Below are positions 8,597 through 42,117 of a stretch of 64,000 nucleotides of DNA, piece by piece. The stretch's first letter is position 1. Each line of letters opens with the position of its first letter. The DNA is taken from NCBI GenBank assembly GCA_964370925.1, contig CAYJLH010000004.1, forward strand, positions 3,167-67,166. Reading direction: 5' to 3'. The stretch comes from an uncultured Oscillospiraceae bacterium. GTDB taxonomy: Bacteria > Bacillota > Clostridia > Oscillospirales > Oscillospiraceae. The position numbers and the translations under genes were made by a program. Below the pieces are notes generated by a model. The model searched no databases and was not told the origin of the DNA. It saw only the letters and a list, made by a program, of their open reading frames with translations.

Positions 8597-8715
8597 AAAT
8601 CCCTCTCCTCACATTATTAAAATCGTCATAAAAGCGAAAAACGCCCATCAAAACGCAGAAAGAGGCAAAGCCCTCCCCCTGATATGTTTGATGAACGCCC
8701 TTGTTCATTGCTGTC
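8597..8715 (-). promoter_or_regulatory. glnA 5' leader with hexaloop hairpin and terminator-like structure (candidate ANTAR target)
   Basis: RNA sense: ATGAAC-AAGGGC-GTTCAT (8691-8708). Its 3' arm overlaps CATCAAA, which pairs with TTTGATG (8646-8652). That pairing encloses a 10-bp hairpin (8656-8681) and is followed by GGGCGTTTTTCGCTTTT. Confidence 0.45.
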
Positions 8716-8835: not shown

Positions 8836-8864
8836 TTGACAAGGCACAATTACTGTGATATACT
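8836..8864 (+). promoter_or_regulatory. asnA promoter
   Basis: TTGACA 8836-8841, 17 nt, TATACT 8859-8864. Confidence 0.6.
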
Positions 8865-17319: not shown

Positions 17320-19125
17320 CTACAGAATTTTCTCAACTGAAAAGACTTCAAATGGTTCACTTTTTCCTTTTAAACTTAGAGTTCCAAGCGATTTGAATTC
17401 ACCTTGGCCTTCAAGTGCATCCGCAACCGCACGACTTACCAATATTTGTCCTGATTTGGAATTGCTTTCAAGTCTTGCCGCTGTGTTAACTGTATCGCCG
17501 ATAGCTGTGTAGTCCATTCTTTTCGGAGAACCTATGTTACCGACAACAGCAGAACCAAAGTGAACACCAATACCAAAGTCAACACTATGTCCAAATTCTG
17601 CCATCAGTTCTTCTCCAAGAGCTTTTGCACCCTCTCTCATGTCAACCGCAGCTTTGACTGCAAGGTAAATCGGGTTTTCCTGTGGAAGTGGCGCTCCCCA
17701 AAATGCCATGGTGCAGTCACCGATATACTTATCAAGTGTGCCTCGATTTTGGAAAATACAGCTACTTGTTAATGTCAAATATTTATTTACTATTTCAACA
17801 ACCTGTCTTGCGTCAAGTTTTTCTGACATAGTCGTAAAGCCTCGAATGTCGACAAATAAAACAGCAATATCTTTCAAATCTCCGCCAAGTTCAAGTGCTT
17901 GTGGGTCGCCTTTTAAAAGCTCGTTTGCAATTTCAGGCGCGAGGTATCTGTGCAATGTATTTGTAACTTTTCGCTTTTCAAATGTTGCTCTTGTGTAGTT
18001 TGCTCCTACCGAAATCACGTACGCAACCGTCAGTGCTAATGGCAAATACACGATATGTATTACATATCCCGAGTTAAACGCAAAGATACAAAATCCTACG
18101 CACGCTAGGACAGACGCAAACCAAACTGCTGTCGAAATGCGTATTCCTCGGTCATAGAACCAGAAAAACGCTAAAAATGTGATTAAAAATATCGCTATTG
18201 CCTGAGGAACTTTTGATACTTCTTCTTTTAGTTCTCCGCTCAAAAGTGCTGCGACTGCGTTAGCTTGGTATTCAACTCCGTACATTTTTACAGAGTGGTC
18301 TACAGCTGTAATGTAGTCGTCCTGCATCCCCTGTGAGTATGGCCCGATTAGTACAATTTTGTCTGCAAATAGCTGTGGGTCAAGCTCTTGATATACAAGG
18401 TCTGCAATAGAAAATCCATCGTCAAACGCACCTGGCGCAGATTGATAATTCAAATACCACATATGCCTTGGGTCTGTGGGTGGAACTGCAAAATCAGTCT
18501 CGCCCTGAGATTCCATATACATATTATATACAGCGCGGTGAAACGAGGGTATTTCTCTTCCATCGGGTAAGTCAATTTGCCAAATAGCATGGCGCAAAAT
18601 TCCATCAAAGTCTAACATACCGTTGATGTGACCTTGCTCTGTGACTTCTTTTAAAGCTTCGTACGGTTCTTCATACTGCAAAACTGCAAAAGTATCCAGA
18701 TAAAAAGAGCCGTCGTCGTTTACAACAAGTTCCTCGCCAAATGTTGCCGTTGAACCTGTAACGACATTTCCATATCTTCCCGATGCTTCAACCAAGGCGG
18801 CGTCGGCGTCGGGATATTCACTTTCACCTATATAAGTCGTATCAATTCCGATTACTGCCGGGCGATTTTCGGGATCTTGATTTAAATACTCAATCGCCTC
18901 CGCCATGATATCTCTAGGCCACGGCATAGGGCCGAATTCATCAACCGCCCTTTCATCCATACCAATAAGTATTATTTCGGATGGTGGGGTTTTCGGCTGT
19001 TGGTAGGCTACGTCGGCTAACACGTTAGCCTGTGTGAGCATGATATCAGTGGAATAGAGCACTGTGAAAAACAGTGCTCCAACCGTAGCTAGCAGAAAAC
19101 GCTGAATTTGCTTGCGTTTATTCAT
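17320..19125 (-). CDS. CHASE2-domain class III adenylate/guanylate cyclase
   Basis: N-terminal TM. Periplasmic-type CHASE2 pattern (IILIGMDERAVDEFGPMPWPRD). Three TMs. Cyclase core (VLFVDIRGFTTMSE, KYIGDCTMAFWG, IGDTVNTAARLES). Confidence 0.85.
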   Translation of the reverse strand: MNKRKQIQRFLLATVGALFFTVLYSTDIMLTQANVLADVAYQQPKTPPSEIILIGMDERAVDEFGPMPWPRDIMAEAIEYLNQDPENRPAVIGIDTTYIGESEYPDADAALVEASGRYGNVVTGSTATFGEELVVNDDGSFYLDTFAVLQYEEPYEALKEVTEQGHINGMLDFDGILRHAIWQIDLPDGREIPSFHRAVYNMYMESQGETDFAVPPTDPRHMWYLNYQSAPGAFDDGFSIADLVYQELDPQLFADKIVLIGPYSQGMQDDYITAVDHSVKMYGVEYQANAVAALLSGELKEEVSKVPQAIAIFLITFLAFFWFYDRGIRISTAVWFASVLACVGFCIFAFNSGYVIHIVYLPLALTVAYVISVGANYTRATFEKRKVTNTLHRYLAPEIANELLKGDPQALELGGDLKDIAVLFVDIRGFTTMSEKLDARQVVEIVNKYLTLTSSCIFQNRGTLDKYIGDCTMAFWGAPLPQENPIYLAVKAAVDMREGAKALGEELMAEFGHSVDFGIGVHFGSAVVGNIGSPKRMDYTAIGDTVNTAARLESNSKSGQILVSRAVADALEGQGEFKSLGTLSLKGKSEPFEVFSVEKIL

Positions 19126-19148
19126 TTTAGCTCCTTTTAGTCATATCA

Positions 19149-30218: not shown

Positions 30219-30440
30219 TCAGCCTCCGGCAACTGGTGGAAATAATGCGACAATGTCGTCAGCTTTCACAGTGTCCTCAGGTTTTGAGTGCATACCATTA
30301 ATAAGACAAATTGCAAGGTCATCAACAGAGATATTAAGTTCTGCCAAAATATCAGAAATTGTATTCATTTTTTCAGGTGACATGAAGATTATTTTATCTC
30401 TGCCCTCTCTGAAAAATGCAAAAAGTCTCACTTCAATCAT
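30219..30440 (-). CDS. MoaD/ThiS-family ubiquitin-like sulfur-carrier protein
   Basis: 73 aa ending FPPVAGG (C-terminal Gly-Gly). Immediately downstream of AOR. Confidence 0.75.
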   Translation of the reverse strand: MIEVRLFAFFREGRDKIIFMSPEKMNTISDILAELNISVDDLAICLINGMHSKPEDTVKADDIVALFPPVAGG

Positions 30441-30462
30441 AGTTATGCTCCATTCGATTTAC

Positions 30463-32268
30463 TTATTTATATTCGCTAAGTCCCAAACGCTCAAGAGTTG
30501 CCTCTGTTGGGAAAGCAGAATCCCAACCACGTACGTCATAATATTGTGGAAGAGTTACAGGTAGTTCACTAATCATACCCTTAGATGGGCCGTCTGGGAT
30601 AACTTCTTCAAGCAAACGCTTAGGAAGCTTATCGTCCTCGGGTTTCATGCCTGCGTGCTTATTAAATTGGCGCTCAATATTATAAATACGCTCACCAACT
30701 TCAAGCAATTGCTCCGGTGTGTAAGTTGTGCCTGTTGCAGCATTTAAAAGACCTGCATATTGTGGCGCACCCATAGCAAATGATGAGAACAAGCAAAGTC
30801 CCATGCTGTCAATAACAGCAGTTAGGTCTTGGAATATTTTACACCAAGTTGCTTTGCCCTCTGTTGCTGTGCGGTCTAGTTGCTCAGGAAGTCCTAGAAC
30901 CTCTGGGGAAATTAGATATCCACGAACATGGCAACCGCCACGGTTACTTGTTGCATAAGTTATGCCAATTCCTTGAATAGCACGTGGGTCATATGCTGGA
31001 AGCTCTTGCTTCTTAACGCTCATTGAAACTTCTGGATGACCATAATGCTCACAAAGTCTAAAGCTACCGTCAGCCATTAGTTTTGCAAGTGGAATTTTTC
31101 CTTCACCCATGCGCTTTGTCCACTCGATGATAGCTTCTGAACTACCCCAAGCTAGTGGAACACCCTCACATTCCTCTTCCTTGATTGCGCCGATTTGGTA
31201 AAGTTCCATAGCCGCAGCGATAGTACAAGGAGTTGAAATCGCATCGAGTCCGTATTCATTACACCAGTAGTTTGCCTCATTGATAGCAGTAAGGTCACTG
31301 ATATTACAGTTACCGCCGTATGCCCATAGTGGCTCATACTCAGGGCCACCAGTGACTTTTCCGTCGATTTCAATCATACGACCGCAACCCATAGGACAGC
31401 GATGGCAGAAACTTTGCTTTACAAGGTGTTTTTCTCTTAATGTTTCTCCCGATGTCTCGTCAGCCGGTGGGAAATATGCTTCTTGCCAGTTACGAGTTGG
31501 GAAAGCTCCTGTGTTATTGATAATGTTAACCAGAACAGCTGTACCATAAGTTGGTAGACCCTGACCGGTAACACCGTTTTCACGAATTAGTTTCATGCTC
31601 TCAGCTGTTACCGCTTTCAAAGCGTCAGCATCAGCTGGTTTAATAACTGTACGTGATGCACTTACTGTGATAGCCTTAAAATTCTTGCTACCCATAACCG
31701 CACCAACACCACTACGACCTGCCGCACGGTGCTTATCATTCATGATACATGCAAGCAGTGATAGATTTTCACCTGATGGGCCAATGTTCAAAACTGCACA
31801 CTTTGGATAAATTTCTTTCAATTTATCGTCAATGTGTTCGCTCATCATGCCCATATAGGGACTTGCGTCCAAAAGTTCAATCTTATCGTCCTCAATGTTG
31901 AGGTAAACAGGTTTTTCTGATTTTCCCTCGACAATAATTCCGTCATAACCTGCATATTTAAGTTTTGCACCCCAAACACCACCTGAGTTTGATGACGCAA
32001 TCATGCCTGTTAGCGGTGATTTTGTCACAACCATGTATCTACCGGCTGTTGGTGAAGCTGTTCCTGTCATTGGACCTGCTAGGAACACCAATTTGTTTTG
32101 TGGGCTTAGTGGTTCAACAGTTGCGACACCCTCATCCATCAAAATTTTTGTACCCAATCCACGACCGCCAATAAACTTTATAGCATCGTCTAAGTTTAGG
32201 TCTTCAACTTTGATAGCGCCCTCTGTTAGGTTAACACGAATAATTTTTCCGCAATATGATGTTGACAT
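30463..32268 (-). CDS. aor: aldehyde:ferredoxin oxidoreductase (tungstopterin enzyme family)
   Basis: AOR pattern (GKIIRVNLT...GGRGLG..., CHRCPMGCGR Fe-S motif, YATSNRGGCH). Start at ATG 32268 after GAGGAGGA. ORF-track extension to 32394 rejected. Confidence 0.93.
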   Translation of the reverse strand: MSTSYCGKIIRVNLTEGAIKVEDLNLDDAIKFIGGRGLGTKILMDEGVATVEPLSPQNKLVFLAGPMTGTASPTAGRYMVVTKSPLTGMIASSNSGGVWGAKLKYAGYDGIIVEGKSEKPVYLNIEDDKIELLDASPYMGMMSEHIDDKLKEIYPKCAVLNIGPSGENLSLLACIMNDKHRAAGRSGVGAVMGSKNFKAITVSASRTVIKPADADALKAVTAESMKLIRENGVTGQGLPTYGTAVLVNIINNTGAFPTRNWQEAYFPPADETSGETLREKHLVKQSFCHRCPMGCGRMIEIDGKVTGGPEYEPLWAYGGNCNISDLTAINEANYWCNEYGLDAISTPCTIAAAMELYQIGAIKEEECEGVPLAWGSSEAIIEWTKRMGEGKIPLAKLMADGSFRLCEHYGHPEVSMSVKKQELPAYDPRAIQGIGITYATSNRGGCHVRGYLISPEVLGLPEQLDRTATEGKATWCKIFQDLTAVIDSMGLCLFSSFAMGAPQYAGLLNAATGTTYTPEQLLEVGERIYNIERQFNKHAGMKPEDDKLPKRLLEEVIPDGPSKGMISELPVTLPQYYDVRGWDSAFPTEATLERLGLSEYK

Positions 32269-32313
32269 AAAAAAATCCTCCTCATTTTTGAATAATATTT
32301 CGATTTTACGTAA

Positions 32314-32390
32314 AAATAAGCACGCAAAACCAAAATCCTTTCCAAATACGGGAGGCATCACAATTACGGCGGATACCCTTAGGCTTATTT
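32314..32390 (-). ncRNA. candidate Moco/Wco (molybdenum/tungsten cofactor) riboswitch aptamer
   Basis: RNA: AAAUAAGC-CUAAGGGUAUCCGCCGUAAUUGUGAUGCCUCCCGUAUUUGGAAAGGAUUUUGGUUUUGCGU-GCUUAUUU. It has an 8-bp closing helix and an internal GGUAUC/GAUGCC helix. GCCUCCC and GGAAAGG strings match my memory of the Moco motif. Located in the AOR 5' UTR. Confidence 0.5.
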
Positions 32391-32421
32391 CCATATCAAA
32401 TAAGCTCGGATTTATAGTACT

Positions 32422-32450
32422 ATATTACCATAATTCAAATCGACTGTCAA
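32422..32450 (-). promoter_or_regulatory. promoter of the riboswitch-aor-moaD unit
   Basis: Minus strand: TTGACA (32450-32445), 17 nt, TAATAT (32427-32422). A second TTGACA lies 8 nt upstream. Confidence 0.55.
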
Positions 32451-32472
32451 TTATAGTCTGTCAAAAAAGTAT

Positions 32473-32512
32473 AAAAAGGACCATGGGAATGTTTAGTTAA
32501 CCTCCCATGGTC
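32473..32512 (-). terminator. terminator of the ECF operon (overlaps the stop of its last gene)
   Basis: GACCATGGGA-14 nt-TCCCATGGTC (10-bp stem) followed on the minus strand by CTTTTTATACTTTTTT. Confidence 0.7.
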
Positions 32513-33411
32513 ATATGATTTACCAAAAATCTCCTGTAAAATTCCTCTCTAATCTGAAAACTACCAATCATTTTAAGTTCCGACCTCGTAATAGGGATAT
32601 TAAACCTATTATCTGCGCCAATTTCTGTCACGCTAAGTCTTATATCTTTGAAAGCAAACAAGTCCTCCGCCAGCGAATAAACACCGTCCATTTCATCGAA
32701 AAATGAAAAAAGTTGCGCCCTTGAATATGCTAGATTTTTGACTTCAAGTTCCTCTTTCGTATCGCTGTTCCAAAAAAGTTCTTCTTTGACCTCAGCATAA
32801 AAAGCAGTAGCCCTTTCTAGCATATCTTCCTCAGTTCGTCTGCGTTTGCACATTTCAGAAATTTCAAGTTTGTACATTTCTTCGATACGTTTTCCGCAAA
32901 TTCCACGCATAGTAAAAGTGCGAATTAGCAAAGCACATGTCCGCTTTTTCCAGTCTGTAAAACTTGGATTATATGTGGCGGCAAATGCAATGATTTTTCC
33001 GCAATCTTCTGCGATATCGCCCTCCGAAATGTGGCTTTCGAAGTCAATTCCGACACAAATTTCGTCTTTTTCACTGAAAATATAGTTGCGTAAATTGTTA
33101 TCAACACGCAGTTTACCAGTCGCTTTGTGGTATTCTAGTAACCACTCCGCGAGTGCTATTGCGTGTTTTTCCTCCATATTTTCCACTAATTCGGAGTATA
33201 AAATTCCGTCGATATGCTTGTAACAGAGCATGTTTTCTGATGTCGAAACCAAGCTTGGAACTGCAACTTTTTTTGACTGTAAAAGGGCAATCATAGCCTT
33301 TTCACGTTCAAAATCCTCTGTATTTTTGAAAAGTTTTTTTACAATTTCCCCATCACCCCTTACAGTATTTCTTTTGGAAATAAAGGTGATTTCAGTGGAA
33401 TTTTCTTGCAT
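32497..33411 (-). CDS. hypothetical protein with protein-kinase/APH-like N-terminal fold (tentative)
   Basis: 304 aa. IVKKLF...EREKAMIALL...YKHIDG...RVDNNLRNYIF...VGIDFE resembles the Lys/Glu/catalytic-loop/DFG-like order of small kinases. TAATG overlap with the upstream gene. Confidence 0.4.
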   Translation of the reverse strand: MQENSTEITFISKRNTVRGDGEIVKKLFKNTEDFEREKAMIALLQSKKVAVPSLVSTSENMLCYKHIDGILYSELVENMEEKHAIALAEWLLEYHKATGKLRVDNNLRNYIFSEKDEICVGIDFESHISEGDIAEDCGKIIAFAATYNPSFTDWKKRTCALLIRTFTMRGICGKRIEEMYKLEISEMCKRRRTEEDMLERATAFYAEVKEELFWNSDTKEELEVKNLAYSRAQLFSFFDEMDGVYSLAEDLFAFKDIRLSVTEIGADNRFNIPITRSELKMIGSFQIREEFYRRFLVNHMTMGG

Positions 33412-34175
33412 TATTTCAAGCCTCCACGCTTAAAGCTAATCTCAATATCTCCGTCCTCAGTATAGCCGTTTAGCTCTTTAACTACAGACAAAACAGCATT
33501 TTTTAAGAGATTTTCGACAAACGGAACCATTTCAATGTTATGACCATCGACCTTTAGCTCAATACTTGGCTTTTTCAGTACGCAATCCTCGGCTGTCGCC
33601 TGTTTTTTCAAGATTTTACCTGTCAATTCCCTACATGTACAGCCACACGCATCACAACATTTCGGATCCATATTCGGCATAGGTGAAATCGCATGTTGCA
33701 TGACAAATTGAACGAGTTTTTCAGGCTCGTCAAGAGCATGAATTACGGGATAATCACCAAAACTTTTTCTCCCATCATTTGCCAAAACACCCGAAACTCC
33801 GACCACTCTTTCGTCAAGTCTCTCCAAAACTTCTTGCTCAGTGTGAGCCGTCAAAATTCTGGGGACATTGAGGTCCGTAACTCCCTCTAAAATCACATAA
33901 TCATGGTCATAGTGTCGCAAAATATCCTCAATCGGTAGCATGGTTTGGTACAGAACATCTGTCTCAAACATTCCTCTCGCTGTGACTAATTGCGAGCCTG
34001 CATTTTTATGACGGTTAGTATTTGAGTCCTCCACAGGGTCAATTTTAAAAAGTTCGAAGTGTATTTCTTTAACCGAGCCGACAGAAAACCCAAGCTTTCT
34101 AAGTCCGCTGATAATCGTCTCGCACACAGTTGTTTTTCCAGACTTTGTAATGCCATTAACTGCAATAACTTTCAT
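33411..34175 (-). CDS. MobB-like P-loop protein with Cys-rich C-terminal extension
   Basis: MKVIAVNGITKSGKTT...VGSVKEIHFE...NRHKNAGS resembles MobB. Extra domain with CCDACGCTC. Confidence 0.65.
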   Translation of the reverse strand: MKVIAVNGITKSGKTTVCETIISGLRKLGFSVGSVKEIHFELFKIDPVEDSNTNRHKNAGSQLVTARGMFETDVLYQTMLPIEDILRHYDHDYVILEGVTDLNVPRILTAHTEQEVLERLDERVVGVSGVLANDGRKSFGDYPVIHALDEPEKLVQFVMQHAISPMPNMDPKCCDACGCTCRELTGKILKKQATAEDCVLKKPSIELKVDGHNIEMVPFVENLLKNAVLSVVKELNGYTEDGDIEISFKRGGLK

Positions 34176-34187
34176 AATTTTTCCTCC

Positions 34188-34916
34188 CTATCCATAGTAA
34201 AAAATCATAGTCGTAGCCGAAATTGCGAGCAATAAAACTATGGCGACAACATCAATTCCAACCATTTTTACTTCTATAAAACTCGTGCGTTTTTTCATTG
34301 CACCAAAACCTCTAGCCTCCATTGCCATTGCCAAATCCTGTGATTTTATAACAGCGTCGGCAACAACAGGCGAGAGTAAATATCCGTATAATTTTATCCT
34401 TTTTCCGAAGGGAATTTTTTCAACTTCAATCCCTCTAAGTTGAATTGAAACCATTGCATCTGTAAAACTTTCCATAAAAAATGGAATAAATCTTAGCGTC
34501 AACATAATCATAAATGAAAAAGTATAAGGCACATGCAATTTTGAAAGCGAGGCTATAACCCGCCTGCTGTTTTCACTTTCCATGATTGCCGCTGAGGAAA
34601 TCAATGTAAAAAATCGAAGTCCCATGGTCACACCACGCAAAAATCCGTCGGTGTAAATAATTACGAATTCCCCGTATGAAAGCAGTGGTTCACCCGACCT
34701 TACAAATATAATTTGAATCACGCAAACTCCGATTAATATGTTTATAAAGCGTTTTAATTTGTTAAAAAGGAATTTGTAATTCGCCCCAAAAAGTAGCATT
34801 AACACAAAGGAAAACACGGCAATTCCGAGCAAATACAGCCAATCTTTGAACAAAATCGACATTGATGTCGTTAACAAAATCCCAAGCAGTTTTACCCGTG
34901 GGTCAGCATTTTTCAT
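34188..34916 (-). CDS. ecfT: ECF transporter transmembrane (T) component
   Basis: 242 aa, CbiQ/EcfT-like multi-TM protein with ARG motif (AMAMEARGFG). Follows two ECF-type ATPases. Confidence 0.85.
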   Translation of the reverse strand: MKNADPRVKLLGILLTTSMSILFKDWLYLLGIAVFSFVLMLLFGANYKFLFNKLKRFINILIGVCVIQIIFVRSGEPLLSYGEFVIIYTDGFLRGVTMGLRFFTLISSAAIMESENSRRVIASLSKLHVPYTFSFMIMLTLRFIPFFMESFTDAMVSIQLRGIEVEKIPFGKRIKLYGYLLSPVVADAVIKSQDLAMAMEARGFGAMKKRTSFIEVKMVGIDVVAIVLLLAISATTMIFYYG

Positions 34917-35574
34917 TTACAATTCCTCCTTTCGACACTTTGACAATGCGTGCCTCAGGAAAGCGAGAAAAAAGCTCCGTATCATGGGAAATCACAGCAA
35001 TTCCAAGTCCTGATTTCACAAGCTCATCCATAATCGTGTATAAGGTTTTGCGGTTTGCCACATCTAAGCCTGTTGTAGGCTCGTCAAGCATGAGATATTT
35101 GATGTCTTGCATAAGAATTGAGGCAAGCGCAAGCCTTTGTTTTTCGCCACGACTGAGACGATATGTGCTTCGTTTTGCCAGATGTTTTAGTGAAAATCTG
35201 TCCAAAAGTTCTATGGCTTTTTTTGCGATTTCATCGGGGTTTTGGTCTAAAACCGAACCTATAAATGTCATCTCATCCCAGACTGTTGCCGTAAAAATCT
35301 GCTTTGACGGCTCTTGAAAAAGGTAGCCTACATATTTTCCCATTTGCCCAAGAGTGAAGTTTGTTGCGTCATTTCCAAAAACCGTATGCCCCATGCCCTC
35401 ACATTTTAAAATCCCTGCACAGAGCTTCAAAAGAGTTGATTTTCCGCTTCCGTTATTCCCCTCAACAAGACAAATTTCGCCTGTTTTCAAGGTGAATTCT
35501 TCGGCAGTAAATCTAAAAGCGTTTCTTGGATACTGAAAGGAAATATTTTTAAGTGTGATTGCATGTTCACTCAT
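34903..35574 (-). CDS. ecfA: ECF transporter ATPase component
   Basis: Walker A GNNGSGKST, signature LSRGEKQRLALA, Walker B LMLDEPT. Confidence 0.9.
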   Translation of the reverse strand: MSEHAITLKNISFQYPRNAFRFTAEEFTLKTGEICLVEGNNGSGKSTLLKLCAGILKCEGMGHTVFGNDATNFTLGQMGKYVGYLFQEPSKQIFTATVWDEMTFIGSVLDQNPDEIAKKAIELLDRFSLKHLAKRSTYRLSRGEKQRLALASILMQDIKYLMLDEPTTGLDVANRKTLYTIMDELVKSGLGIAVISHDTELFSRFPEARIVKVSKGGIVNEKC

Positions 35575-36263
35575 AAACTCTCTCCTCCGCTCCCCTTTTG
35601 TGCCACAAGTTTTCCATCAATAAATGCATAAATTTTATCAGCAATAAACAGATTTTCCTCGTCGTGTTCGACCATCAAAATTGCTTTCCCACGCTTTTTC
35701 AGCTCGACTATACAATCCATAATCCTTGCTGTTGCCTCCCTGTCGAGCTGGCTTAAAGCCTCGTCGAACAATAGCACCTGTGGGTCTAGCGTTAAAACTG
35801 CCCCCAAGGCAACAAGCTGTTTTTGGCCACCCGAAAGACGTGTAGGACTGTGAAATCTATAGTCCTCCATGCCGACAATTTTTAGAGCTTCATCAATTCT
35901 TTTTGCGATTTCTTCCCTCGGTAAACCTATGTTTTCAGGACCAAAAGCGAGTTCATCCTCAACCGTAGGTGCAAAAAGTTGTGCATCAGGATTTTGGAAA
36001 ACTATGCCGACTTGTCGCACAACTTCATGCAACGGCATTTCGGCTACAGCCTTACCCGAAAGTAGTGCTTCGCCCTTTAATTCGCCCTCTATACTCCTCG
36101 GAATTAGCCCCGCTAATATCAGACAAAGTGTTGATTTTCCGCAACCTGATGGCCCTGTAATCGCAACACATTCACCCGAATTTATAGATAGATTTGCACC
36201 GCTTATAAGTGGATTTTGCCCTAGGTAGGAGAAGAAAATCTCCCTTGCTTCAAGCTGTATCAT
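35571..36263 (-). CDS. ecfA: ECF transporter ATPase component (second)
   Basis: Walker A GPSGCGKST, LSGGQKQLVALG, LLFDEAL. Start at ATG 36263 (ATGA overlap with the upstream stop). Confidence 0.9.
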   Translation of the reverse strand: MIQLEAREIFFSYLGQNPLISGANLSINSGECVAITGPSGCGKSTLCLILAGLIPRSIEGELKGEALLSGKAVAEMPLHEVVRQVGIVFQNPDAQLFAPTVEDELAFGPENIGLPREEIAKRIDEALKIVGMEDYRFHSPTRLSGGQKQLVALGAVLTLDPQVLLFDEALSQLDREATARIMDCIVELKKRGKAILMVEHDEENLFIADKIYAFIDGKLVAQKGSGGESL

Positions 36264-36793
36264 TGTATCACAACTTCCTGTACAAATTTGCACCAACGCT
36301 GTGAAAATTCTGAGCTTTTTATAATCATTAGGTATGGCCCCATGCCACCCTCTGATTTTGGTTTTAACGGTTCATCATCCATCGCAAGGCAGATATAAAC
36401 ATTATCCTCCGTCATGATTTCCTCTTTTGTCAGCGCTGAGGTATAACCGTCAAGTGAGCGCACTTCTATAGTTTCACTCGAAATTTCCATATCCGCAAAT
36501 TCGAAAACATCCTTTAATTCAACGCCCGAAAAACTAACATCAGTCGGGTCTGTATTGCTCGTATCCATAACCGCAGAAACGGGTACAGGGTTAAGTGACA
36601 ACATGTCATCCATAGTGATTTGAACCGTTGTTTCACCTGATTTTAGCTCAAAAACCGCATTCATTTCAAGCTCTTTTTTGTAGCTGACATCGCCGGCATT
36701 TAGCCTTGAAAAAATTGTAATCATAATAACAAGCACTGCAATGATTACAAGCAATATTTTTGCCTGATTATTAACATTTTTCTTGTATTCCAT
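36260..36793 (-). CDS. membrane-anchored exported protein with one YedY/sulfite-oxidase-like molybdopterin-binding-type module
   Basis: N-terminal TM. FSGVELKDVF..IEVRSLDGYTSALTKEEI..YICLAMDDEPL..GPYLMIIKSSEFSQRWCKFVQEVVI. Confidence 0.5.
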   Translation of the reverse strand: MEYKKNVNNQAKILLVIIAVLVIMITIFSRLNAGDVSYKKELEMNAVFELKSGETTVQITMDDMLSLNPVPVSAVMDTSNTDPTDVSFSGVELKDVFEFADMEISSETIEVRSLDGYTSALTKEEIMTEDNVYICLAMDDEPLKPKSEGGMGPYLMIIKSSEFSQRWCKFVQEVVIQ

Positions 36794-36805
36794 AGTTTTA
36801 CCCCT

Positions 36806-38287
36806 CTATTTTATCGTGAAAAATGGAATACACATATCTTCGTACTTAAACTCGCCGTGGTCTCCCAATTTTTCACCAATACTTGTGTCATGTTGTCCGT
36901 GGTCAGAAATTATATAAGTAGTCCCCGAAAAAGCGGAAAGCATTTCGTTGACATAGCCCTCGATTTCATCGAGTTTTTTTATTGCTTCGTCTGAATACGT
37001 CCCATAAGTGTGGGAAATATCGTCATAGCCGTGGAAGTGTACAAAGACTAATTCGTGTTCCTCTTCTATCGTTTTCATGGCAGAAGCAAAAACTTCATCG
37101 TCAGTCGAGCCGTCAGCATTTTCATCTGCGTTTAAAATCGGCGAAACACTTGAATTCACAAGTTTTGAATATCCCTCAACCAAAACACCATCGACATTTT
37201 CAAACATGTCAGGCACTAAAAGTTCACGCTCTGAGCGCTCAGTTACGCCGTTTATGTCCGGTGTTTCCCCAGTTATCATCGCCGCAAGTGCCACATTTGA
37301 TATACTGGGCATAACTGTACGCATTTTTTCCACTGTATGCTCTTTCGAAAGTTCTAAGCCGTGCATTTCGTATGCTTTATAGCCCAGCCCGTCGATATGA
37401 ATTACCAAAACATCTCCCTCAGTGTTTTCAACTATGCCTTTCAGGTCTGTTATAGATGCCTCGGGTGCATCTTCCCAAACTCCAACTATGTCATGAATTC
37501 GGGTTTTTCCGTCGGCATCAACGTAGTCGGCAGTGTTTCCTCTCCAGTCGAAATAACCGTCAAGAGATACCATTTGCTCTGACCCATCACCGAAATAAGC
37601 AAGCGCTTCCCCACCATTTGAGTCAATATAGCTCGAAATCGGAACCATAGGTCGGCGAGTATAGGCGCTAACACCAAGTCCGTTTTTTTCTGCATTTCCC
37701 TCGACGACAGACATTATAACACTATCTTCAAGGAACAAATTTCCGTACGAAATTTCATAACCGCTCTCACCCGAAATTGTGCGCAAACACGCCTGTTCAG
37801 GGTGCATAATTTCTGCAACTAGTACAATATAGTCGATGTTTCTGATGCCTGCCTGTGGCGGAAAATTGGGAGCACTTATGGAAAATCCCGCAGTTTCATT
37901 CCAATAAAGCAAAATACTTTCATCAATATCATCTTTTGAGATTTCAGCCATAACACCATCCGGTGAATGAAAAATCACTTTAATTTCACTACCCAAAGGA
38001 ACAGCTTCATTTAGCACATTTATAAGCGGTATTGCCGGAAAATTTTCTCCATCTTTTTCAACTGTTGTGGTTTCATAATCCGAAAAGTCCGTCAGCGTAA
38101 TTTCGGTTTCGACATCGCCTGTTATGGTAATAGGGCTTCGCTCTCCCGACAAAAATGAGATTTCAGTCGGTGCAACTTCTTCTGTTTGTGGTGATATCTG
38201 AGGTGAGTTACTCGCCTGTTCCTGACATCCCGAGAATATAAAAAGCGTCGCAAGCGATAGAACTGTTAAGCTAATTTTCTTTTTCAC
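36806..38287 (-). CDS. lipoprotein: YedY-like module plus alkaline-phosphatase-superfamily (NPP-type phosphodiesterase/pyrophosphatase) domain
   Basis: GTG 38287, 6 nt after GGAGG. Lipobox IFSGC. FPAIPLINVLNEA..VIFHSPDGVMAEISKDDI module. AP-type motifs VIHIDGLGY, MPSISNVALAAMITGETP, FVHFHGYDDISH, ISDHGQHD. Confidence 0.6.
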   Translation of the reverse strand: MKKKISLTVLSLATLFIFSGCQEQASNSPQISPQTEEVAPTEISFLSGERSPITITGDVETEITLTDFSDYETTTVEKDGENFPAIPLINVLNEAVPLGSEIKVIFHSPDGVMAEISKDDIDESILLYWNETAGFSISAPNFPPQAGIRNIDYIVLVAEIMHPEQACLRTISGESGYEISYGNLFLEDSVIMSVVEGNAEKNGLGVSAYTRRPMVPISSYIDSNGGEALAYFGDGSEQMVSLDGYFDWRGNTADYVDADGKTRIHDIVGVWEDAPEASITDLKGIVENTEGDVLVIHIDGLGYKAYEMHGLELSKEHTVEKMRTVMPSISNVALAAMITGETPDINGVTERSERELLVPDMFENVDGVLVEGYSKLVNSSVSPILNADENADGSTDDEVFASAMKTIEEEHELVFVHFHGYDDISHTYGTYSDEAIKKLDEIEGYVNEMLSAFSGTTYIISDHGQHDTSIGEKLGDHGEFKYEDMCIPFFTIK

Positions 38288-38918
38288 TGGTTTCCTCCAA
38301 CTCTTTGGGCATAGGTACTGAAAAACCATTGCCTTTTTGTTTTTCATCTTTTGTGATTTGTCTGCCTTGCAAAATCCCGAGGCGTCTTACGTTAGAGCCG
38401 ATTGAATGTGCAACCAAACCACCCAAACCGCCAGATAGTGCAGATGCAGTTAGTGATAGCATCAATGGAACAAAAGATAGGTTGAAAATCGCAAGATTCA
38501 CCGAAAAGCTACCTGCCATGTTGGCAACAACTCCGCCAAGAAAACAGCAAATCGCACAATCTGCCCTGTGCCTCATAATCAAATATAAAAGGTCAATTGC
38601 AATTCCGGGCATGGTGTAAGTTAGAATACTCGCCGCACCATGAGAGCCAAGCGCGCCTGTTAGTGTAACAACCGCACCTTGTATCAAAGCAACGACAAAA
38701 GCCGTTCCCCATTTTCCTGTAATGCTCTCCCCCAACACAAGGAAAGCCATATAAAAACCGCCTGCAACCACACCGCCGGGTATAAAAAGTGGCCCTGTGA
38801 TGATTTGTGCAAGCGGAACAATAATCGCCTTAATTGCTATGCCCATAGCAGCAACCATGGACATAATGCAGTAATCTGCCAGTGTGAAATATGGTCTTTT
38901 TATTTTCAAGAGTAACAC
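38271..38918 (-). CDS. ECF transporter substrate-specific (S) component-like membrane protein, unknown specificity
   Basis: ~6 hydrophobic helices, Gly/Ala-rich (PLFIPGGVVAGGFYMAFLV). Located inside the ECF operon. The true start is possibly TTG 38909. Confidence 0.55.
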   Translation of the reverse strand: MLLLKIKRPYFTLADYCIMSMVAAMGIAIKAIIVPLAQIITGPLFIPGGVVAGGFYMAFLVLGESITGKWGTAFVVALIQGAVVTLTGALGSHGAASILTYTMPGIAIDLLYLIMRHRADCAICCFLGGVVANMAGSFSVNLAIFNLSFVPLMLSLTASALSGGLGGLVAHSIGSNVRRLGILQGRQITKDEKQKGNGFSVPMPKELEETSEKEN

Positions 38919-38929
38919 TCCTTTTCACT

Positions 38930-38961
38930 ATTAGGGCAGATGCATCTGCACCTACCCTAAT
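38930..38961 (-). other. intercistronic stem-loop between the lipoprotein and S-component genes
   Basis: ATTAGGG...CCCTAAT enclosing the palindrome CAGATGCATCTG. No U-run. Confidence 0.35.
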
Positions 38962-38994
38962 AAAATAACTCGTCATCTTGTAGTATTACAAGAA

Positions 38995-40575
38995 TTAATC
39001 AATAACAATTTGAACTAGATATTTCGCCCAGTTATTTGCTGTGAAGTTTTCGCTGACTGCAAACCAAACTTTGCCGTCGCCATCGCTTTCGATATATTCG
39101 CCATCTTGATATAGTGCAAACATTGATTGTGGGTCGTTTAGCATGTCGGGTGTTAGTTTGATTTCATATCCGTCAGAAGCGATAACTGTTATTGTGCTTT
39201 CTGGGTCAGCACCAACAAAGTTTGCAATTTCTGACCAGTGAACACCTTTGTAAACACCGACAACTGTTTCACCAAAAGAGTTTGTGCGTGAGATTTCATG
39301 CTCTAGTTGTGGTAGTGCCATAAAATCTTCTTCTGTGATAGCTTTTGCTTCGCCACCAACTGTGATAGTTAAAAGTGCGCCTTCAACAGCTTCTGTTTCA
39401 ACTTCTTCGCCTGCTTCTTCTGACACTGTTTCACCTGAAACCAATTCGCCTGATGGAACAATTGAAGCTAGGTATTTGACTTTTCCGCCGCCTTTAGCAT
39501 CGCCAAAGTCATAACCTTCGAATTCAGCTCTGATATAGCCCTCTTCTTCGTCTGGATAGATTTTTCCGAATTCAATAGCGTCACCAGGAATAACTGTCTC
39601 ATATCCGTCGCTTGCGATGAATTTATACTCGCTGTAACCGTTAATTCCCAGTGTATCAAGTAGTGTTGCAACATCTGTTTCTGTTCCGAAATAAATAGCT
39701 GTTGAACCAGCTTTAACTAGGTCAAGTTGCTTAACACGCATGCCTAGGTTTAGTGTTTCTGAGAAATATTGTGGTGCATTTGTTTCCATATCTTCGCTAC
39801 CCTCAAGTTTTGAAACATAGCAAGTGAAGAATACATCAGCATTTTCTGTTTTTTCGTGTCCATCACGAGCAATTAAAGTAAATACTTCTGTTTCATTTTC
39901 AGGAAGGAATGCATCAAAATATGCTTGAAGTGAGTATGATTCAACCATTGTTCCGTCATAGTCTAAAGTTTCAGGTGTTAAAGTTGTCGCATTTTCAAAG
40001 AAAAATTGAACTTCTGCAACCATTTCTTCGCTTGCAGCCGCAGCTTCACCTGCACCAATTTCAATCATTGATAAATCTTTAACCCAGAACATAGCGCGTT
40101 TTTCAGGAACTGCACTTCTAGGTGTTTCAAGGACTTCACCGTTAAATGTAAGAACGATGTAAGCGCCTGTTTCTGCATATTCGTCGGCTGGTACGTTCAT
40201 AACATAACCGTCAGCCGCTGTGAAAGTCAAGCCACCGACATCTGCCAAGTTGATTCCATTTTCTTCAAGAACTTTTGCAATTGAAATGCCCTCAAAAACG
40301 ATTTCTGAGCTTTCGCCTTTTGAGTCTAGTGATGTTGTTTCAATTGTTTCAAGCTCCATAGCTTTCATGTCTGCACCGGTAAGTACGATGTCAACACCCT
40401 CACCTTTGATTGCAATTTCATAATCGTCAGCAAGTCCGCCCTCAGTTGATGCCTCGGGGCTAACTTCAGCACTTGCCACGGGGCTTTCTTCCGGAGCATC
40501 TGTTTCACTTGAACATCCGGCAAACACCAGCATAAGCAAAACAAGCGCAAGGGATAATAGTGTATGCTTTTTCAT
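38995..40575 (-). CDS. lipoprotein with three YedY/sulfite-oxidase-like molybdopterin-binding-type modules
   Basis: Lipobox VFAGC. Modules FEGISIAKVLEENGI..TFTAADGYVMNVPADEY..LTFNGEVL..MFWVKDLSMIEI; LLDTLGINGYSEYKFIASDGYETVIPGDAIE; YKGVHWSEIANFVG..VIASDGYEIKLTPDML..ALYQDGEYI..NNWAKYLVQIVI. Confidence 0.55.
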   Translation of the reverse strand: MKKHTLLSLALVLLMLVFAGCSSETDAPEESPVASAEVSPEASTEGGLADDYEIAIKGEGVDIVLTGADMKAMELETIETTSLDSKGESSEIVFEGISIAKVLEENGINLADVGGLTFTAADGYVMNVPADEYAETGAYIVLTFNGEVLETPRSAVPEKRAMFWVKDLSMIEIGAGEAAAASEEMVAEVQFFFENATTLTPETLDYDGTMVESYSLQAYFDAFLPENETEVFTLIARDGHEKTENADVFFTCYVSKLEGSEDMETNAPQYFSETLNLGMRVKQLDLVKAGSTAIYFGTETDVATLLDTLGINGYSEYKFIASDGYETVIPGDAIEFGKIYPDEEEGYIRAEFEGYDFGDAKGGGKVKYLASIVPSGELVSGETVSEEAGEEVETEAVEGALLTITVGGEAKAITEEDFMALPQLEHEISRTNSFGETVVGVYKGVHWSEIANFVGADPESTITVIASDGYEIKLTPDMLNDPQSMFALYQDGEYIESDGDGKVWFAVSENFTANNWAKYLVQIVID

Positions 40576-40624
40576 TCTGTTTCTCCTTATTTCATCTTCA
40601 TTTTTTCAGCTTTCGCATCATGGT

Positions 40625-40664
40625 ATTTTAACATATTTTCTTGATAAATGTCAAGCAATGTCAA
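40625..40664 (-). promoter_or_regulatory. promoter of the ECF operon
   Basis: Minus strand: tandem TTGACA boxes (40664-40659 and 40654-40649). The proximal box is 18 nt from TAAAAT (40630-40625). Confidence 0.5.
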
Positions 40665-40702
40665 CATTTTCGAATAGTCAAAATGCCCAAATCACAAACT
40701 TT

Positions 40703-41359
40703 TCAAAGCAGTATTTCAAACTCATTTTTTGAAAATTTTATTATGCCCTCTTTCTGCATTTTCGATAGTTCATTTGAAAGCGCACTTCTATCCGCACATA
40801 GAAAACTCGCGAGTTGTTCACGATTTAACTCTATAGTAAACTTTTTAGCGCCTCTCCTTGAATAGTTGAAATATGCCATAATCTTTTCCCTCAGAGTTTT
40901 CTTAGAAATAATATCAATTTTTTGGTTTAGATACAGACTTTTTCTGGCTATAACCTTTAGCATATTGGAAATTAGTGTCTGATGAAACCTACATGATGAA
41001 CTACATGTCGTAACAATTTTCCTATAGTCTAAAAACAAAACCCGACTTTTCGCCCCTGCGACTATCGAAACAGGGCTTTGAAAAATATCCGCACACGCGA
41101 AAACCTCCAAAAAGATATCCCCGTCAGATATCTCGGCAATTATTGTTTCATTTCCGTTTTCATCAGACTTCATAACTCTAACTTCACCCGAAATTACTAT
41201 TCCTACAAAATCTATTTTGTCACCTAAGTGTAAAATATACTCATTTTTGGCGTAGCTCTTTTCAAATGCGGATATGCAATTAAACATAGCATTAAAATCT
41301 TCTCTTGTGATATTATCGAATATAGGATGTGCACATACTAAATCAAAATAATTTTTCAT
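40703..41359 (-). CDS. Crp/Fnr-family transcriptional regulator (HcpR-like by context)
   Basis: cNMP-binding-like N-terminus and C-terminal HTH (REQLASFLCADRSALSNELSKMQKEGII). Start at ATG 41359 after AAAGGGG. Divergent from hcp. Confidence 0.8.
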   Translation of the reverse strand: MKNYFDLVCAHPIFDNITREDFNAMFNCISAFEKSYAKNEYILHLGDKIDFVGIVISGEVRVMKSDENGNETIIAEISDGDIFLEVFACADIFQSPVSIVAGAKSRVLFLDYRKIVTTCSSSCRFHQTLISNMLKVIARKSLYLNQKIDIISKKTLREKIMAYFNYSRRGAKKFTIELNREQLASFLCADRSALSNELSKMQKEGIIKFSKNEFEILL

Positions 41360-41373
41360 AATACCCCTTTTTC

Positions 41374-41398
41374 GTTGTGTAGACAACAGATTTGTTGT
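41374..41398. promoter_or_regulatory. overlapping palindromes in the crp/hcp intergenic region (candidate operator)
   Basis: GTTGT-gtag-ACAAC (41374-41387) and ACAACA-gatt-TGTTGT (41383-41398), just upstream of TATAAT 41405-41410. Confidence 0.35.
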
Positions 41399-41445
41399 GT
41401 TGATTATAATACAATGTGGATACAGAAGTCAAGGAGGCTTAACAA

Positions 41446-42117
41446 ATGAGCAAAAAAGTTATAAAGATAGATGCCGACAAATGCATAGGCTGTGGTCTAT
41501 GTGCAGCGACATGTAAGCAAAGTGCAATCGAAATGATTGACGGAAAAGCAGTTGTAACATCAGAAGATTATTGCGACGGAATTGGAAATTGTCTTCGCGT
41601 ATGCCCTGTAAACGCAATTAGTTTTTCAGATAAAGATGTAAGCAAATCAGAGGACAGACCCAAACATTCAACTTGCCCCGGTAGCAGAGCAAAAATGATT
41701 TCATCTGACGAAAATGTTGCAGATGTAAAAATAAAATCCGCCCTACGTCAATGGCCAGTGCAAATTAAATTAATTCCCGAAAGTGCGCCTTATTTTGAAA
41801 ATGCAGACTTGCTTATCGCCGCAGATTGCTCCGCATTTGCATATGCAAATTTTCATGCGGAATTTATCAAAGATAAGATTACTATAATCGGATGTCCAAA
41901 ACTCGATAGTGTTGACTACACGAATAAATTAAGTTCAATCATCAATAATAACAGTATCAAGTCAGTTACAGTCGTGAGAATGGAAGTTCCATGCTGTGGT
42001 GGTATCGAAAACGCCGCAGTTAACGCAGTGAAAAACAGTGGAAAAAAATTACCGCTTAATGTAGTTACTATTACAATTAACGGTGAAATTTTAAAAAATA
42101 AGAAAGTTGAGGATTAG
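41446..42117 (+). CDS. 4Fe-4S dicluster ferredoxin-domain protein
   Basis: CIGCGLCAATC and CDGIGNCLRVCP motifs. Co-oriented with and adjacent to hcp. Confidence 0.75.
   Translation: MSKKVIKIDADKCIGCGLCAATCKQSAIEMIDGKAVVTSEDYCDGIGNCLRVCPVNAISFSDKDVSKSEDRPKHSTCPGSRAKMISSDENVADVKIKSALRQWPVQIKLIPESAPYFENADLLIAADCSAFAYANFHAEFIKDKITIIGCPKLDSVDYTNKLSSIINNNSIKSVTVVRMEVPCCGGIENAAVNAVKNSGKKLPLNVVTITINGEILKNKKVED

Follow-up and report, generated by a model that had tools for sequence, protein, structure and literature searches.

The closest described relatives of the gene cluster analysed here are the group I energy-coupling factor (ECF) importers, among them YkoEDC for thiamine-related compounds, QrtTUVW and CbrTUV, in which an S component, EcfT and two EcfA ATPases are encoded in one operon. 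The cluster lies on the minus strand of a 64,000 nucleotide stretch of DNA from an uncultured Oscillospiraceae bacterium (GenBank assembly GCA_964370925.1, contig CAYJLH010000004.1, positions 3,167 to 67,166), hereafter called the window, and may well encode an importer for a pterin of the molybdopterin type. It has the same transporter genes in one operon, and YkoEDC shares the Pfam family PF09819 with the S component of the window. Across its relatives the system also resembles the group I importers in riboswitch control by the cofactor concerned and in the logic of salvage. Unlike the ECF systems described in the literature that we searched, it combines extracytoplasmic modules, an ectoenzyme, a MobB-like protein with four conserved cysteines and a kinase in one operon.

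The transporters ModABC, TupABC, WtpABC and MolBC-A belong to the same regulon, that of the molybdenum cofactor (Moco) riboswitch, and Tup-like genes adjoin the operon in several genomes. However, these are type I or II ABC transporters with an oxyanion-binding protein, whereas the system described here combines an ECF (type III) transporter with modules of a pterin-binding fold.

The modules themselves are best compared with PruR from Agrobacterium, Vibrio and Klebsiella (PDB 7kou, 7kom, 7kp2 and 7rkb; PMC11194511), a single soluble periplasmic protein of Proteobacteria, crystallised with neopterin, that regulates a DcpA-type cyclic di-GMP (c-di-GMP) enzyme. In the clostridial system the domain is repeated, anchored to lipid, membrane or S-layer, sometimes fused to the S component, and found under a Moco riboswitch; identity to PruR is only 14-16 %. 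The partners of the module genes are ECF components in all 80 loci of our census, and not DcpA-type GGDEF/EAL proteins or a sensor of the TorS/BaeS type. From the enzymes of the sulfite oxidase (SUOX) fold (YedY/MsrP, SorA and sulfite oxidase) the modules differ in covering approximately the C-terminal two-thirds of the Pfam domain, and in having neither export by twin-arginine translocation (Tat) nor a catalytic partner domain.

Other systems are alike in the way they work. The Isd/NEAT haem relay and BtuG-type capture of vitamin B12 display small repeated ligand modules, anchored to the cell wall or S-layer, to lipid or near the membrane, before an importer of a scarce cofactor; there is no homology, and the relay between modules is a predicted one here. 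In the NAD salvage of Haemophilus (NadN, PnuC and NadR) an ectoenzyme trims the cofactor, a transporter imports the core and a kinase traps it. Proteins and substrate are unrelated to ours, for which the corresponding activities are predicted.

Predicted function of the operon

The operon system clearly belongs to the molybdenum and tungsten (Mo/W) cofactor supply of anaerobic Clostridia. We suggest that it is a dedicated group I ECF importer salvaging an external pterin of the molybdopterin (MPT) type, a prediction of substrate and uptake direction to which we give slightly better than even credence. The most likely ligands are Moco or the tungsten cofactor (Tuco), MPT without metal, the dinucleotide forms of these, or a precursor or degradation product related to them.

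In brief, PruR-like modules, carried by lipoproteins, by a membrane-anchored protein and in some genomes by S-layer-anchored proteins, would capture the ligand and hand it inward. Where it is encoded, an ectoenzyme of the nucleotide pyrophosphatase/phosphodiesterase (NPP) type would remove a nucleotide or phosphate, and the S component, EcfT and EcfAA' would bring the product into the cell. There the kinase-like and MobB/four-cysteine proteins would process it and deliver it to MoeA, MobA and FdhD, ending with insertion into formate dehydrogenase or aldehyde:ferredoxin oxidoreductase (AOR). What we infer here is which substrate is carried and in which direction, in what order the steps follow, and what the kinase and the MobB/four-cysteine protein do.

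A pterin fits best because the modules share the fold and the key contact Tyr of a proven pterin binder, because an NPP outside and a kinase inside match the trim-import-trap pattern of cofactor salvage, and because the S components of ECF transporters, apart from those of the CbiM/NikM group, transport organic micronutrients. It also fits because Clostridium aceticum has two riboswitch-controlled ABC importers (Tup-like and Peripla_BP_2/FecCD) beside the operon, and because the linked genes belong to late steps (MoeA, MoeB-like, MobA, FdhD) and not to those of MoaA and MoaC. The intact NPP site, the catalytic residues of the kinase, the FMN-binding and ApbE neighbours and the S component outside the CbiM/NikM type together follow the logic of an organic substrate. 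Pterin-cofactor salvage had been proposed in an earlier reading of this locus (the original prediction), and the idea stood up to what we found for the S family, the module fold and the linkage to Mo/W genes.

The modules have a PruR-like fold

The first gene of the operon encodes modL3 (38995-40575; this and all other genes below are on the minus strand unless stated), a lipoprotein of 526 aa with the lipobox FAGC, repeated PruR-like modules and a match to Pfam Oxidored_molyb (E 8.7e-8). Three modules had been counted in this protein. A domain hidden Markov model (HMM) built from the single-module family found two strong ones, aa 54-151 (nt 40123-40416, E 5e-15) and aa 402-525 (nt 39001-39372, E 6e-10), while the third, aa 301-365 (nt 39481-39675), is only a weak match (E 0.025). 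DGY and W-x-K motifs are seen in the sequence. A fourth module had been placed in the NPP lipoprotein; the N-terminal domain of that protein (approximately nt 37898-38140) is indeed homologous to the module (profile-profile hhalign 86 %, E 5e-6), but it is degenerate and has lost the Tyr of DGY. Finally, mod1 (36260-36793, 177 aa) is a membrane-anchored protein with one module, as had been read from the sequence, and consists of a transmembrane (TM) helix at aa 9-32 and the module at aa 46-177 (nt 36263-36658; Oxidored_molyb 3.8e-7).

An AlphaFold2 model of mod1, built with 47 homologues, has a mean pLDDT of 92.2 and shows a membrane helix at the N-terminus and a compact domain rich in beta structure. 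The top seven matches in a Foldseek search of this model against the PDB are all PruR (E 8e-7 to 2e-5), with a TM-score of ~0.7 across the whole PruR chain, with sulfite dehydrogenases and sulfite oxidases ranking next. The sequence profile of the single-module family likewise has PruR as its best match in the PDB (E 0.005 and 0.009). The modules had been likened to YedY/MsrP; the Moco-domain fold is right, but the closest solved structure is PruR and not YedY/MsrP.

In PruR the pterin ring is sandwiched by Y104 and W160 and hydrogen-bonded by N102, and mutation of N102, Y104 and W160 impairs function (PMC11194511). The profile alignment places L-D-G-Y of the module over L-N-D-Y of PruR, with D115 on N102 and Y117 on Y104. 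W167 is a candidate counterpart of W160, but lies outside the aligned stretch. D115 and G116 do not vary within the module family, Y117 is conserved at >=90 % and R166-W167-C168-K169 is nearly invariant. Among the modules of the census DG[Y/F/W] is present in 170 of 194, and W-x-K in 93 of the 105 complete ones.

The Pfam Oxidored_molyb matches cover profile positions ~59-163 of 169, approximately the C-terminal two-thirds. The best structural match of the module, PruR, is itself without the Mo-ligating Cys. PruR has a shortened pocket, and its ligands are the non-Moco pterins monapterin and neopterin (PMC11194511). Export signals were assessed in 163 module proteins, with 62 lipoboxes, 95 hydrophobic anchors or signals and 3 weak RR motifs. 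The near-absence of twin-arginine motifs indicates that the module proteins are exported unfolded, and hence are not pre-loaded Moco enzymes. Judging from the model and its matches, we regard the family as a predicted truncated SUOX fold of ~130-150 residues outside the cytoplasm, of PruR type, and the NCBI name 'molybdopterin-dependent oxidoreductase' is probably a misnomer.

The ECF core

The dedicated group I ECF set is complete, with the S component, the T component and two A-type ATPases encoded together. The S component (38271-38918) is a protein of 215 aa when read from the GTG at 38918, and the deposited protein identical to it has 212 aa. It belongs to ABC_cobalt/PF09819 (E 1.1e-10) and not to CbiM/NikM. 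ECF ATPase A (35571-36263, from ATG 36263; full open reading frame (ORF) 35571-36296) and ATPase A' (34903-35574) match ABC_tran at 2.6e-25 and 4.7e-25, respectively. Their best NCBIfam matches are TIGR04520 ECF_ATPase_1 (2.4e-60) and TIGR04521 ECF_ATPase_2 (6.6e-39), both under the equivalog cut-offs. The T component (34188-34916) matches CbiQ/EcfT at 1.7e-27 and TIGR02454 at 1.8e-22. The two ATPases and EcfT named in the original prediction are thus in place.

The S component has 567 close relatives. An exhaustive profile search of 1.84 billion representatives gave 333 S-family clusters at 50 % identity, and because there are just 333 the S component forms a compact family of its own. No solved relative was found by sequence or family profile at E <= 10, and sequence, profile and exhaustive profile searches did not place it in any family of known substrate. 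This agrees with the expectation that it would fall outside the characterised families.

Among the longer hits of the S profile are fusions of S component and NPP domain (561-687 aa; P0185, P0186 and P0198) and of S component and Oxidored_molyb module (360-379 aa; P0188, P0190 and P0194), and a fusion is also seen in L019. From these fusions we argue that the S component is where both the NPP domain and the module would act. Pfam matches nothing in the C-terminal regions of the other long hits P0181-P0183 (303-357 aa).

Ectoenzyme, MobB/four-cysteine protein and kinase

The NPP lipoprotein (36806-38287, start GTG 38287; full ORF 36806-38347) has the lipobox FSGC, the degenerate module in its N-terminal part and a C-terminal domain of NPP/alkaline-phosphatase type, which had been recognised from its motifs and which matches Phosphodiest (6e-12) and Metalloenzyme (1.2e-5). 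The residues of the bimetal site, D299, D422, H426, D462, H463, H466 and H477, are invariant in 40 of 40 homologues. The consensus reads MPSISN..TG, and the column of the nucleophile is below 90 % identity. With its catalytic site intact in sequence, the domain is predicted to be active.

The MobB-like P-loop protein (33411-34175) is cytoplasmic and carries a C-terminal four-cysteine domain, in accordance with the earlier reading of a Cys-rich tail. The MobB domain (PF03205) is matched at 3.6e-12 and 46.8 bits, against a cut-off of 26.6. The MobB/FeS model NF011064 (PRK14494) is matched over its full length at 1.2e-37, but with 129.6 bits against a cut-off of 418. Family invariants are G8, G13, K14 and T15 of the P-loop and the cysteines C174, C177, C181 and C198. 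When E. coli MobB was used as query, 19 family members were matched at 1e-8 to 1e-4.

The last gene (32497-33411) encodes a RIO/Bud32/APH-like kinase of 304 aa, made up of a core (aa 1-~205) and an extension of ~100 aa. A word-seeded homologue search gave 6 hits only, and the operon-linked kinases of the census were therefore used as the family. The window copy has zero Pfam matches, while RIO1 matches 30 and APH 28 of the 42 family members. The kinase/APH-like assignment of the original prediction is borne out at this level. The minimal form of the family is ~200 aa, and K26, E37, D104-x-N106-L-R-N109 and D123-F-E125 are invariant in the 42 sequences. Searched against the PDB, the family profile finds RIO2 and Bud32 at ~5e-8, and APH is also matched. 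In the structural model the core has a pLDDT of 85-95 and the extension is below 50. A fold search returned Bud32, RIO, choline, methylthioribose (MTR), APH and macrolide kinases intermixed at E 2e-4 to 1e-3, so that it does not separate a protein kinase from a small-molecule kinase.

The extension of the kinase (32497-32799) is specific to one clade and ends in ...NHMTMGG, and the last residues are identical in the closest relatives, P0174-P0176, L008 and L009; the other 38 operon-linked kinases are without it. A C-terminal Gly-Gly is a hallmark of sulfur carriers of the MoaD/ThiS type. The extension gave no Pfam match at E <= 10 and has no similarity to the adjacent MoaD. Loci with an extended kinase have AOR-MoaD(-MoeB-like) genes adjoining.

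Conservation and gene neighbourhood

A scan of one genome per species gave 137 S-component relatives (at least 137 species-level genomes), of which 80 loci were kept with flanks of up to 10 kb. It should be noted that the loci are mutually related and were selected by similarity of the S component, that many are cut by contig ends, and that genes were called simply as the longest ORFs. The loci come from Christensenellaceae, Oscillospiraceae, Pelotomaculum, Desulfoscipio, Sporotomaculum, Anaerovirgula, Acidaminobacter, Natronincola, Limnochordia and others. With ORFs tagged by the window proteins, the gene order is nearly fixed as (multi-module lipoprotein)-S-(NPP)-single module-A-A'-T-MobB/FeS-kinase. 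The S component and the single module were each found in 71 of the 80 loci, the T component in 63, MobB/FeS in 53, the multi-module lipoprotein in 52, NPP in 46 and the kinase in 42.

Mo/W genes are present in the flanks of 29 of the 80 loci, and either such genes or a leading riboswitch in 59. Behind the kinase gene, in the same direction, ~15 loci have genes for NuoE-like and NuoF-like proteins and the formate dehydrogenase alpha subunit, and then MobA and FdhD. In L076 and L080 the MoeA gene is inserted in the operon itself, separating MobB/FeS from the kinase; in L001 (C. aceticum) and L085 it is upstream of the operon. Other recurrent neighbours are genes for MoeB-like proteins (7-8 loci), Tup-like binding proteins (4-5) and AOR (4). 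Searches with the E. coli proteins found MoaA, MoaC and Mog in the flanks of L064 only. Linkage to Mo/W-cofactor genes, expected from the window, is therefore conserved and proves far stronger than the window alone could show, but the enzyme most commonly linked is a NAD-type formate dehydrogenase and not AOR. No folate genes were found among the recurrent flanking families that were annotated.

Inside or beside the operon, lipoproteins with an FMN-binding domain are encoded in 16 loci (e.g. L011, L015-L019, L047, L067, L076 and L080), one family having the flavinylation motif GATVTS. The flavin transferase ApbE is encoded inside or beside the operon in 8 loci; the window has neither ApbE nor an FMN-binding lipoprotein. 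These genes point to a flavin-dependent redox step outside the cytoplasm in some lineages.

We also observed variants of the locus. One variant, of Pelotomaculum/Desulfoscipio type (L050, L056, L060, L063, L070-L074, L078 and L081), has two or three Moco riboswitches in tandem ahead of it; here the gene for the S component precedes genes for multi-module proteins that are giant (850-1225 aa) or anchored by S-layer homology (SLH) domains, for MotA/ExbB-like and DUF2149 proteins and often for ApbE. Genes for ECF ATPases, MobB and the kinase are missing near most of these loci, and the ExbB-like energiser here occurs in Gram-positive lineages. In a second sub-group (L025, L026, L028, L030, L032, L036 and L037) an Amidohydro_1 protein of ~380 aa is encoded directly upstream of S, preceded by PadR and HAAS regulator genes; NPP gene and multi-module lipoprotein are missing. 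In L013, from an Oscillospiraceae metagenome-assembled genome, the group II intron domains RF02001 (123 bits) and RF01998 (50 bits) lie just downstream of the operon, at 13198-13468.

Moco riboswitches

Of 9 loci checked, 7 have a member of the Moco riboswitch family Rfam RF01055 directly upstream of the transporter operon and on the same strand; the C. aceticum locus is one of them. Rfam-level hits beyond the window number 13 in 9 loci. A home-made covariance model was trained on 12 sequences, all of them Rfam hits, and gave 70 matches in 1.36 Mb, the new matches being strikingly position-specific. Among the 80 species loci, 75 of which were assessable, 45 have a Moco riboswitch at the head of the operon, and 10 of these carry two or three tandem copies. 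The window is different: its transporter-operon leader has no riboswitch, with nothing above chance in 40300-41700 at E <= 10.

In C. aceticum the order is promoter, aptamer, intrinsic terminator and first gene, with the aptamer ending at 8652 and the gene starting at 8858. Read from the sequence, this leader has the usual form of an attenuating riboswitch. In the triple leader of L071 a simple scan found no terminator. C. aceticum has three Moco riboswitches within 11 kb (8530-8652, 18676-18800 and 19017-19136), which lead the transporter operon, a Tup-like ABC importer and a Peripla_BP_2/FecCD-type ABC importer, respectively. The last of these may be a MolBC-A-like system. A few kb upstream one finds MoeA and a cobalamin riboswitch.

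The AOR aptamer of the window is 105 nt long, and the AOR leaders of L008, L009 and L013 are 103-106 nt. By the Rfam alignment the AOR leader of L013 has no P3 and a short P2, while its transporter leader has P3 and a long insertion; the transporter leader of C. aceticum has no P3 hairpin. Regulski et al. associated the form without P3 with the tungsten cofactor (PMC2408646). A division into AOR-linked RNAs without P3 and transporter-linked RNAs with P3 was considered and rejected; the Rfam alignments show that the length of P2 differs.

The classical targets of the Moco riboswitch are molybdate and tungstate transporters (PMC2408646). In Syntrophomonas wolfei the same study noted 'putative sulphite oxidase' genes behind Moco RNAs, together with genes without a known function. 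These genes are probably the same kind of system, the transporter having gone unrecognised there.

Organization of the locus in the window

Reading of the ORFs together with Pfam and NCBIfam matches gives nine tightly packed genes from 40575 to 32497, and the packing with ATGA, TAATG, 14-nt and 17-nt overlaps is as originally described. The S component and NPP genes overlap by 17 nt if NPP starts at GTG 38287, which is preceded by a GGAGG ribosome-binding site. The mod1/A junction (ATG at 36263) and the A/A' junction are ATGA overlaps, A' and T overlap by 14 nt, and the MobB/kinase junction is TAATG. NPP and mod1, and likewise T and MobB, are separated by 12 nt, and modL3 and S by 76 nt. This last gap contains an imperfect inverted repeat of 30 nt, TTAGGG..GCAGATGCATCTGC..CCCTAA (38931-38960), without a T-run, which may be an mRNA stabiliser or processing site boosting expression of the first gene.

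The operon had been predicted to have a single promoter and a 10-bp terminator. A consensus scan confirmed the promoter, TTGACA-18-TAAAAT with a TG extension (40625-40654, 11 of 12 matches). Directly 3' of the kinase stop codon lies a terminator-like hairpin (32463-32511), whose stem we read as 9 bp (ACCATGGGA / TCCCATGGT), with a loop of 14 nt and a T-run; the simple terminator scan overlooked it because of the size of the loop.

Downstream lies a second unit, encoding AOR and a MoaD-like protein. Its promoter, TTGACA-17-TAATAT with a TG extension, is at 32422-32450 by consensus scan and is followed by a Moco/Tuco aptamer of the short form at 32319-32423 (RF01055, 45.8 bits against a gathering score of 36; 75.4 bits with our own model), so that the riboswitch suspected here, with a promoter of its own, is real at the level of Rfam. 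The AOR gene (30463-32268) has a ribosome-binding site before ATG 32268, its likely start; its identity rests on the reading in the original prediction and on the orthologues that follow the same operon in L008, L009 and L013. The MoaD/ThiS-like protein (30219-30440) has a GG C-terminus, as noted before, and matches ThiS at 5.9e-9 and moaD_arch at 4.2e-7, the latter under its cut-off.

Directly upstream of the transporter operon, on the same strand, a Crp/Fnr-type regulator (cNMP_binding and HTH_Crp_2) is encoded at 40703-41386, and it might stand in for riboswitch control in the lineage of the window. Besides this regulator, the neighbours are a ferredoxin, a hybrid-cluster protein and MATE pumps. 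Beyond the operon and the AOR unit we found no Mo/W genes in the rest of the window neighbourhood, and E. coli Moa, Moe, Mog and Mob proteins as queries gave zero matches across the 64-kb window. Unrelated to the operon, a T-box leader (RF00230, 143.9 bits) lies at 51-273 on the plus strand ahead of an ORF of 873 aa (320-2941), which presumably encodes an aminoacyl-tRNA synthetase.

Counter-evidence and alternative explanations

Several points weigh against the salvage of molybdopterin-type pterins. Both Moco and MPT are highly unstable when free, which makes their supply from the environment uncertain. The modules are about as short as PruR, with its truncated pocket and non-Moco pterins, and it may be doubted that a whole Moco would fit. 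The metal insertase MoeA would be superfluous if a metal-loaded cofactor were imported. The NPP gene is absent from ~15 complete operons (about a quarter) and the kinase from some, and the nearest solved relatives of the kinase include the protein-kinase-like ATPases RIO and Bud32. The operon of the window is itself without a riboswitch (40300-41700, E <= 10), and where Moco riboswitches do occur they classically govern molybdate and tungstate transporters (PMC2408646). The evidence that favours a pterin over a metal species is indirect.

The main contender is that the ECF system imports a tungsten or molybdenum species, be it an oxyanion, a thio-anion or a complex, much as CbiMNQO and NikMNQO import metals with extracytoplasmic accessory proteins, the MobB/four-cysteine protein being a cytoplasmic metallochaperone that feeds MoeA. 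It owes this position to the classical targets of the riboswitch, mod and tup transporters, to the linkage with MoeA, which like the Tup-like genes adjoins or sits within the operon, and to the Cys-rich MobB-like protein with its P-loop and four invariant cysteines. The operon is further coupled to enzymes with a high demand for W or Mo, and sites of the alkaline-phosphatase type bind oxyanions. We nevertheless think metal import unlikely. The modules have the fold of a pterin binder with the stacking Tyr conserved, it is hard to see what an intact NPP and a kinase would do in taking up a metal, the S component falls outside the CbiM/NikM type, and the operon of C. aceticum is already adjoined by two riboswitch-controlled ABC importers.

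Less likely than a metal species is the import of a pterin other than molybdopterin, of the neopterin or monapterin type or related to folate, with a regulatory or indirect link to Mo/W. PruR binds monapterin and neopterin and not Moco, and the pocket of the truncated module may be too small for Moco. Against this, the Moco riboswitch leads the operon in 45 of the 80 loci, the operon carries the MobB-like gene and in two loci MoeA, and folate genes are not among the annotated recurrent flanking families. To our knowledge, Moco synthesis proceeds from GTP via cyclic pyranopterin monophosphate (cPMP) to MPT with no simple pterin intermediate. We regard this explanation as improbable.

The modules could also be working extracytoplasmic pterin or Moco redox proteins together with flavinylated FMN-binding lipoproteins, with the ECF transporter supplying or exporting the cofactor, for which the Listeria FmnA/EetB/RibU system, an exporter of FAD, would be the model. 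This too falls behind the metal species and is an improbable account: the fold is that of sulfite oxidase, Regulski et al. annotated the related S. wolfei genes as putative sulphite oxidases, and FMN_bind lipoproteins and ApbE accompany 16 and 8 loci, but the modules are truncated (Pfam from ~position 59 of 169), Tat signals are absent (3 weak RR motifs among 163 proteins), co-transcribed genes encode MoeA and cytoplasmic users of the cofactor (formate dehydrogenase, MobA and FdhD), and an extracellular NPP with a cytoplasmic kinase suits import over export. An extracytoplasmic Moco enzyme was rejected as the main explanation on account of the absent Tat signals and the non-enzymatic PruR as best match.

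Significance

We found no description of such a system in the ECF, Moco and pterin literature searched, the 2009 survey of ECF families by Rodionov et al. lying outside its coverage, and no transporter for Moco, MPT or cPMP in the literature searched. A 2026 review of bacterial pterins states that the route by which pterins cross membranes is unknown (PMC13259868). The transporter core is of a known kind; what is new is the predicted class of substrate, the module relay, the ectoenzyme and the pair of MobB/four-cysteine protein and kinase. We see in the operon a strong candidate for a route, the first to be known, by which the molybdopterin cofactor or a pterin precursor is taken up. That it is in fact the first dedicated uptake or salvage route for the Mo/W pterin cofactor, or a pterin precursor of it, in any organism is a prediction that we rate just short of probable.

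If salvage of a molybdopterin-type pterin is the true function, it would explain the 'sulphite oxidase-like' and unknown genes behind clostridial Moco riboswitches and the role of PruR-like domains outside Proteobacteria. The current gene names, 'molybdopterin-dependent oxidoreductase' and 'hypothetical protein', probably need correction. The operon supplies concrete proteins with which cofactor cross-feeding can be probed. Salvage would also explain how syntrophs, acetogens and the Clostridia of guts and digesters, with their many W and Mo enzymes, economise on cofactor synthesis, and anaerobic communities would then share Moco and Tuco much like B12.

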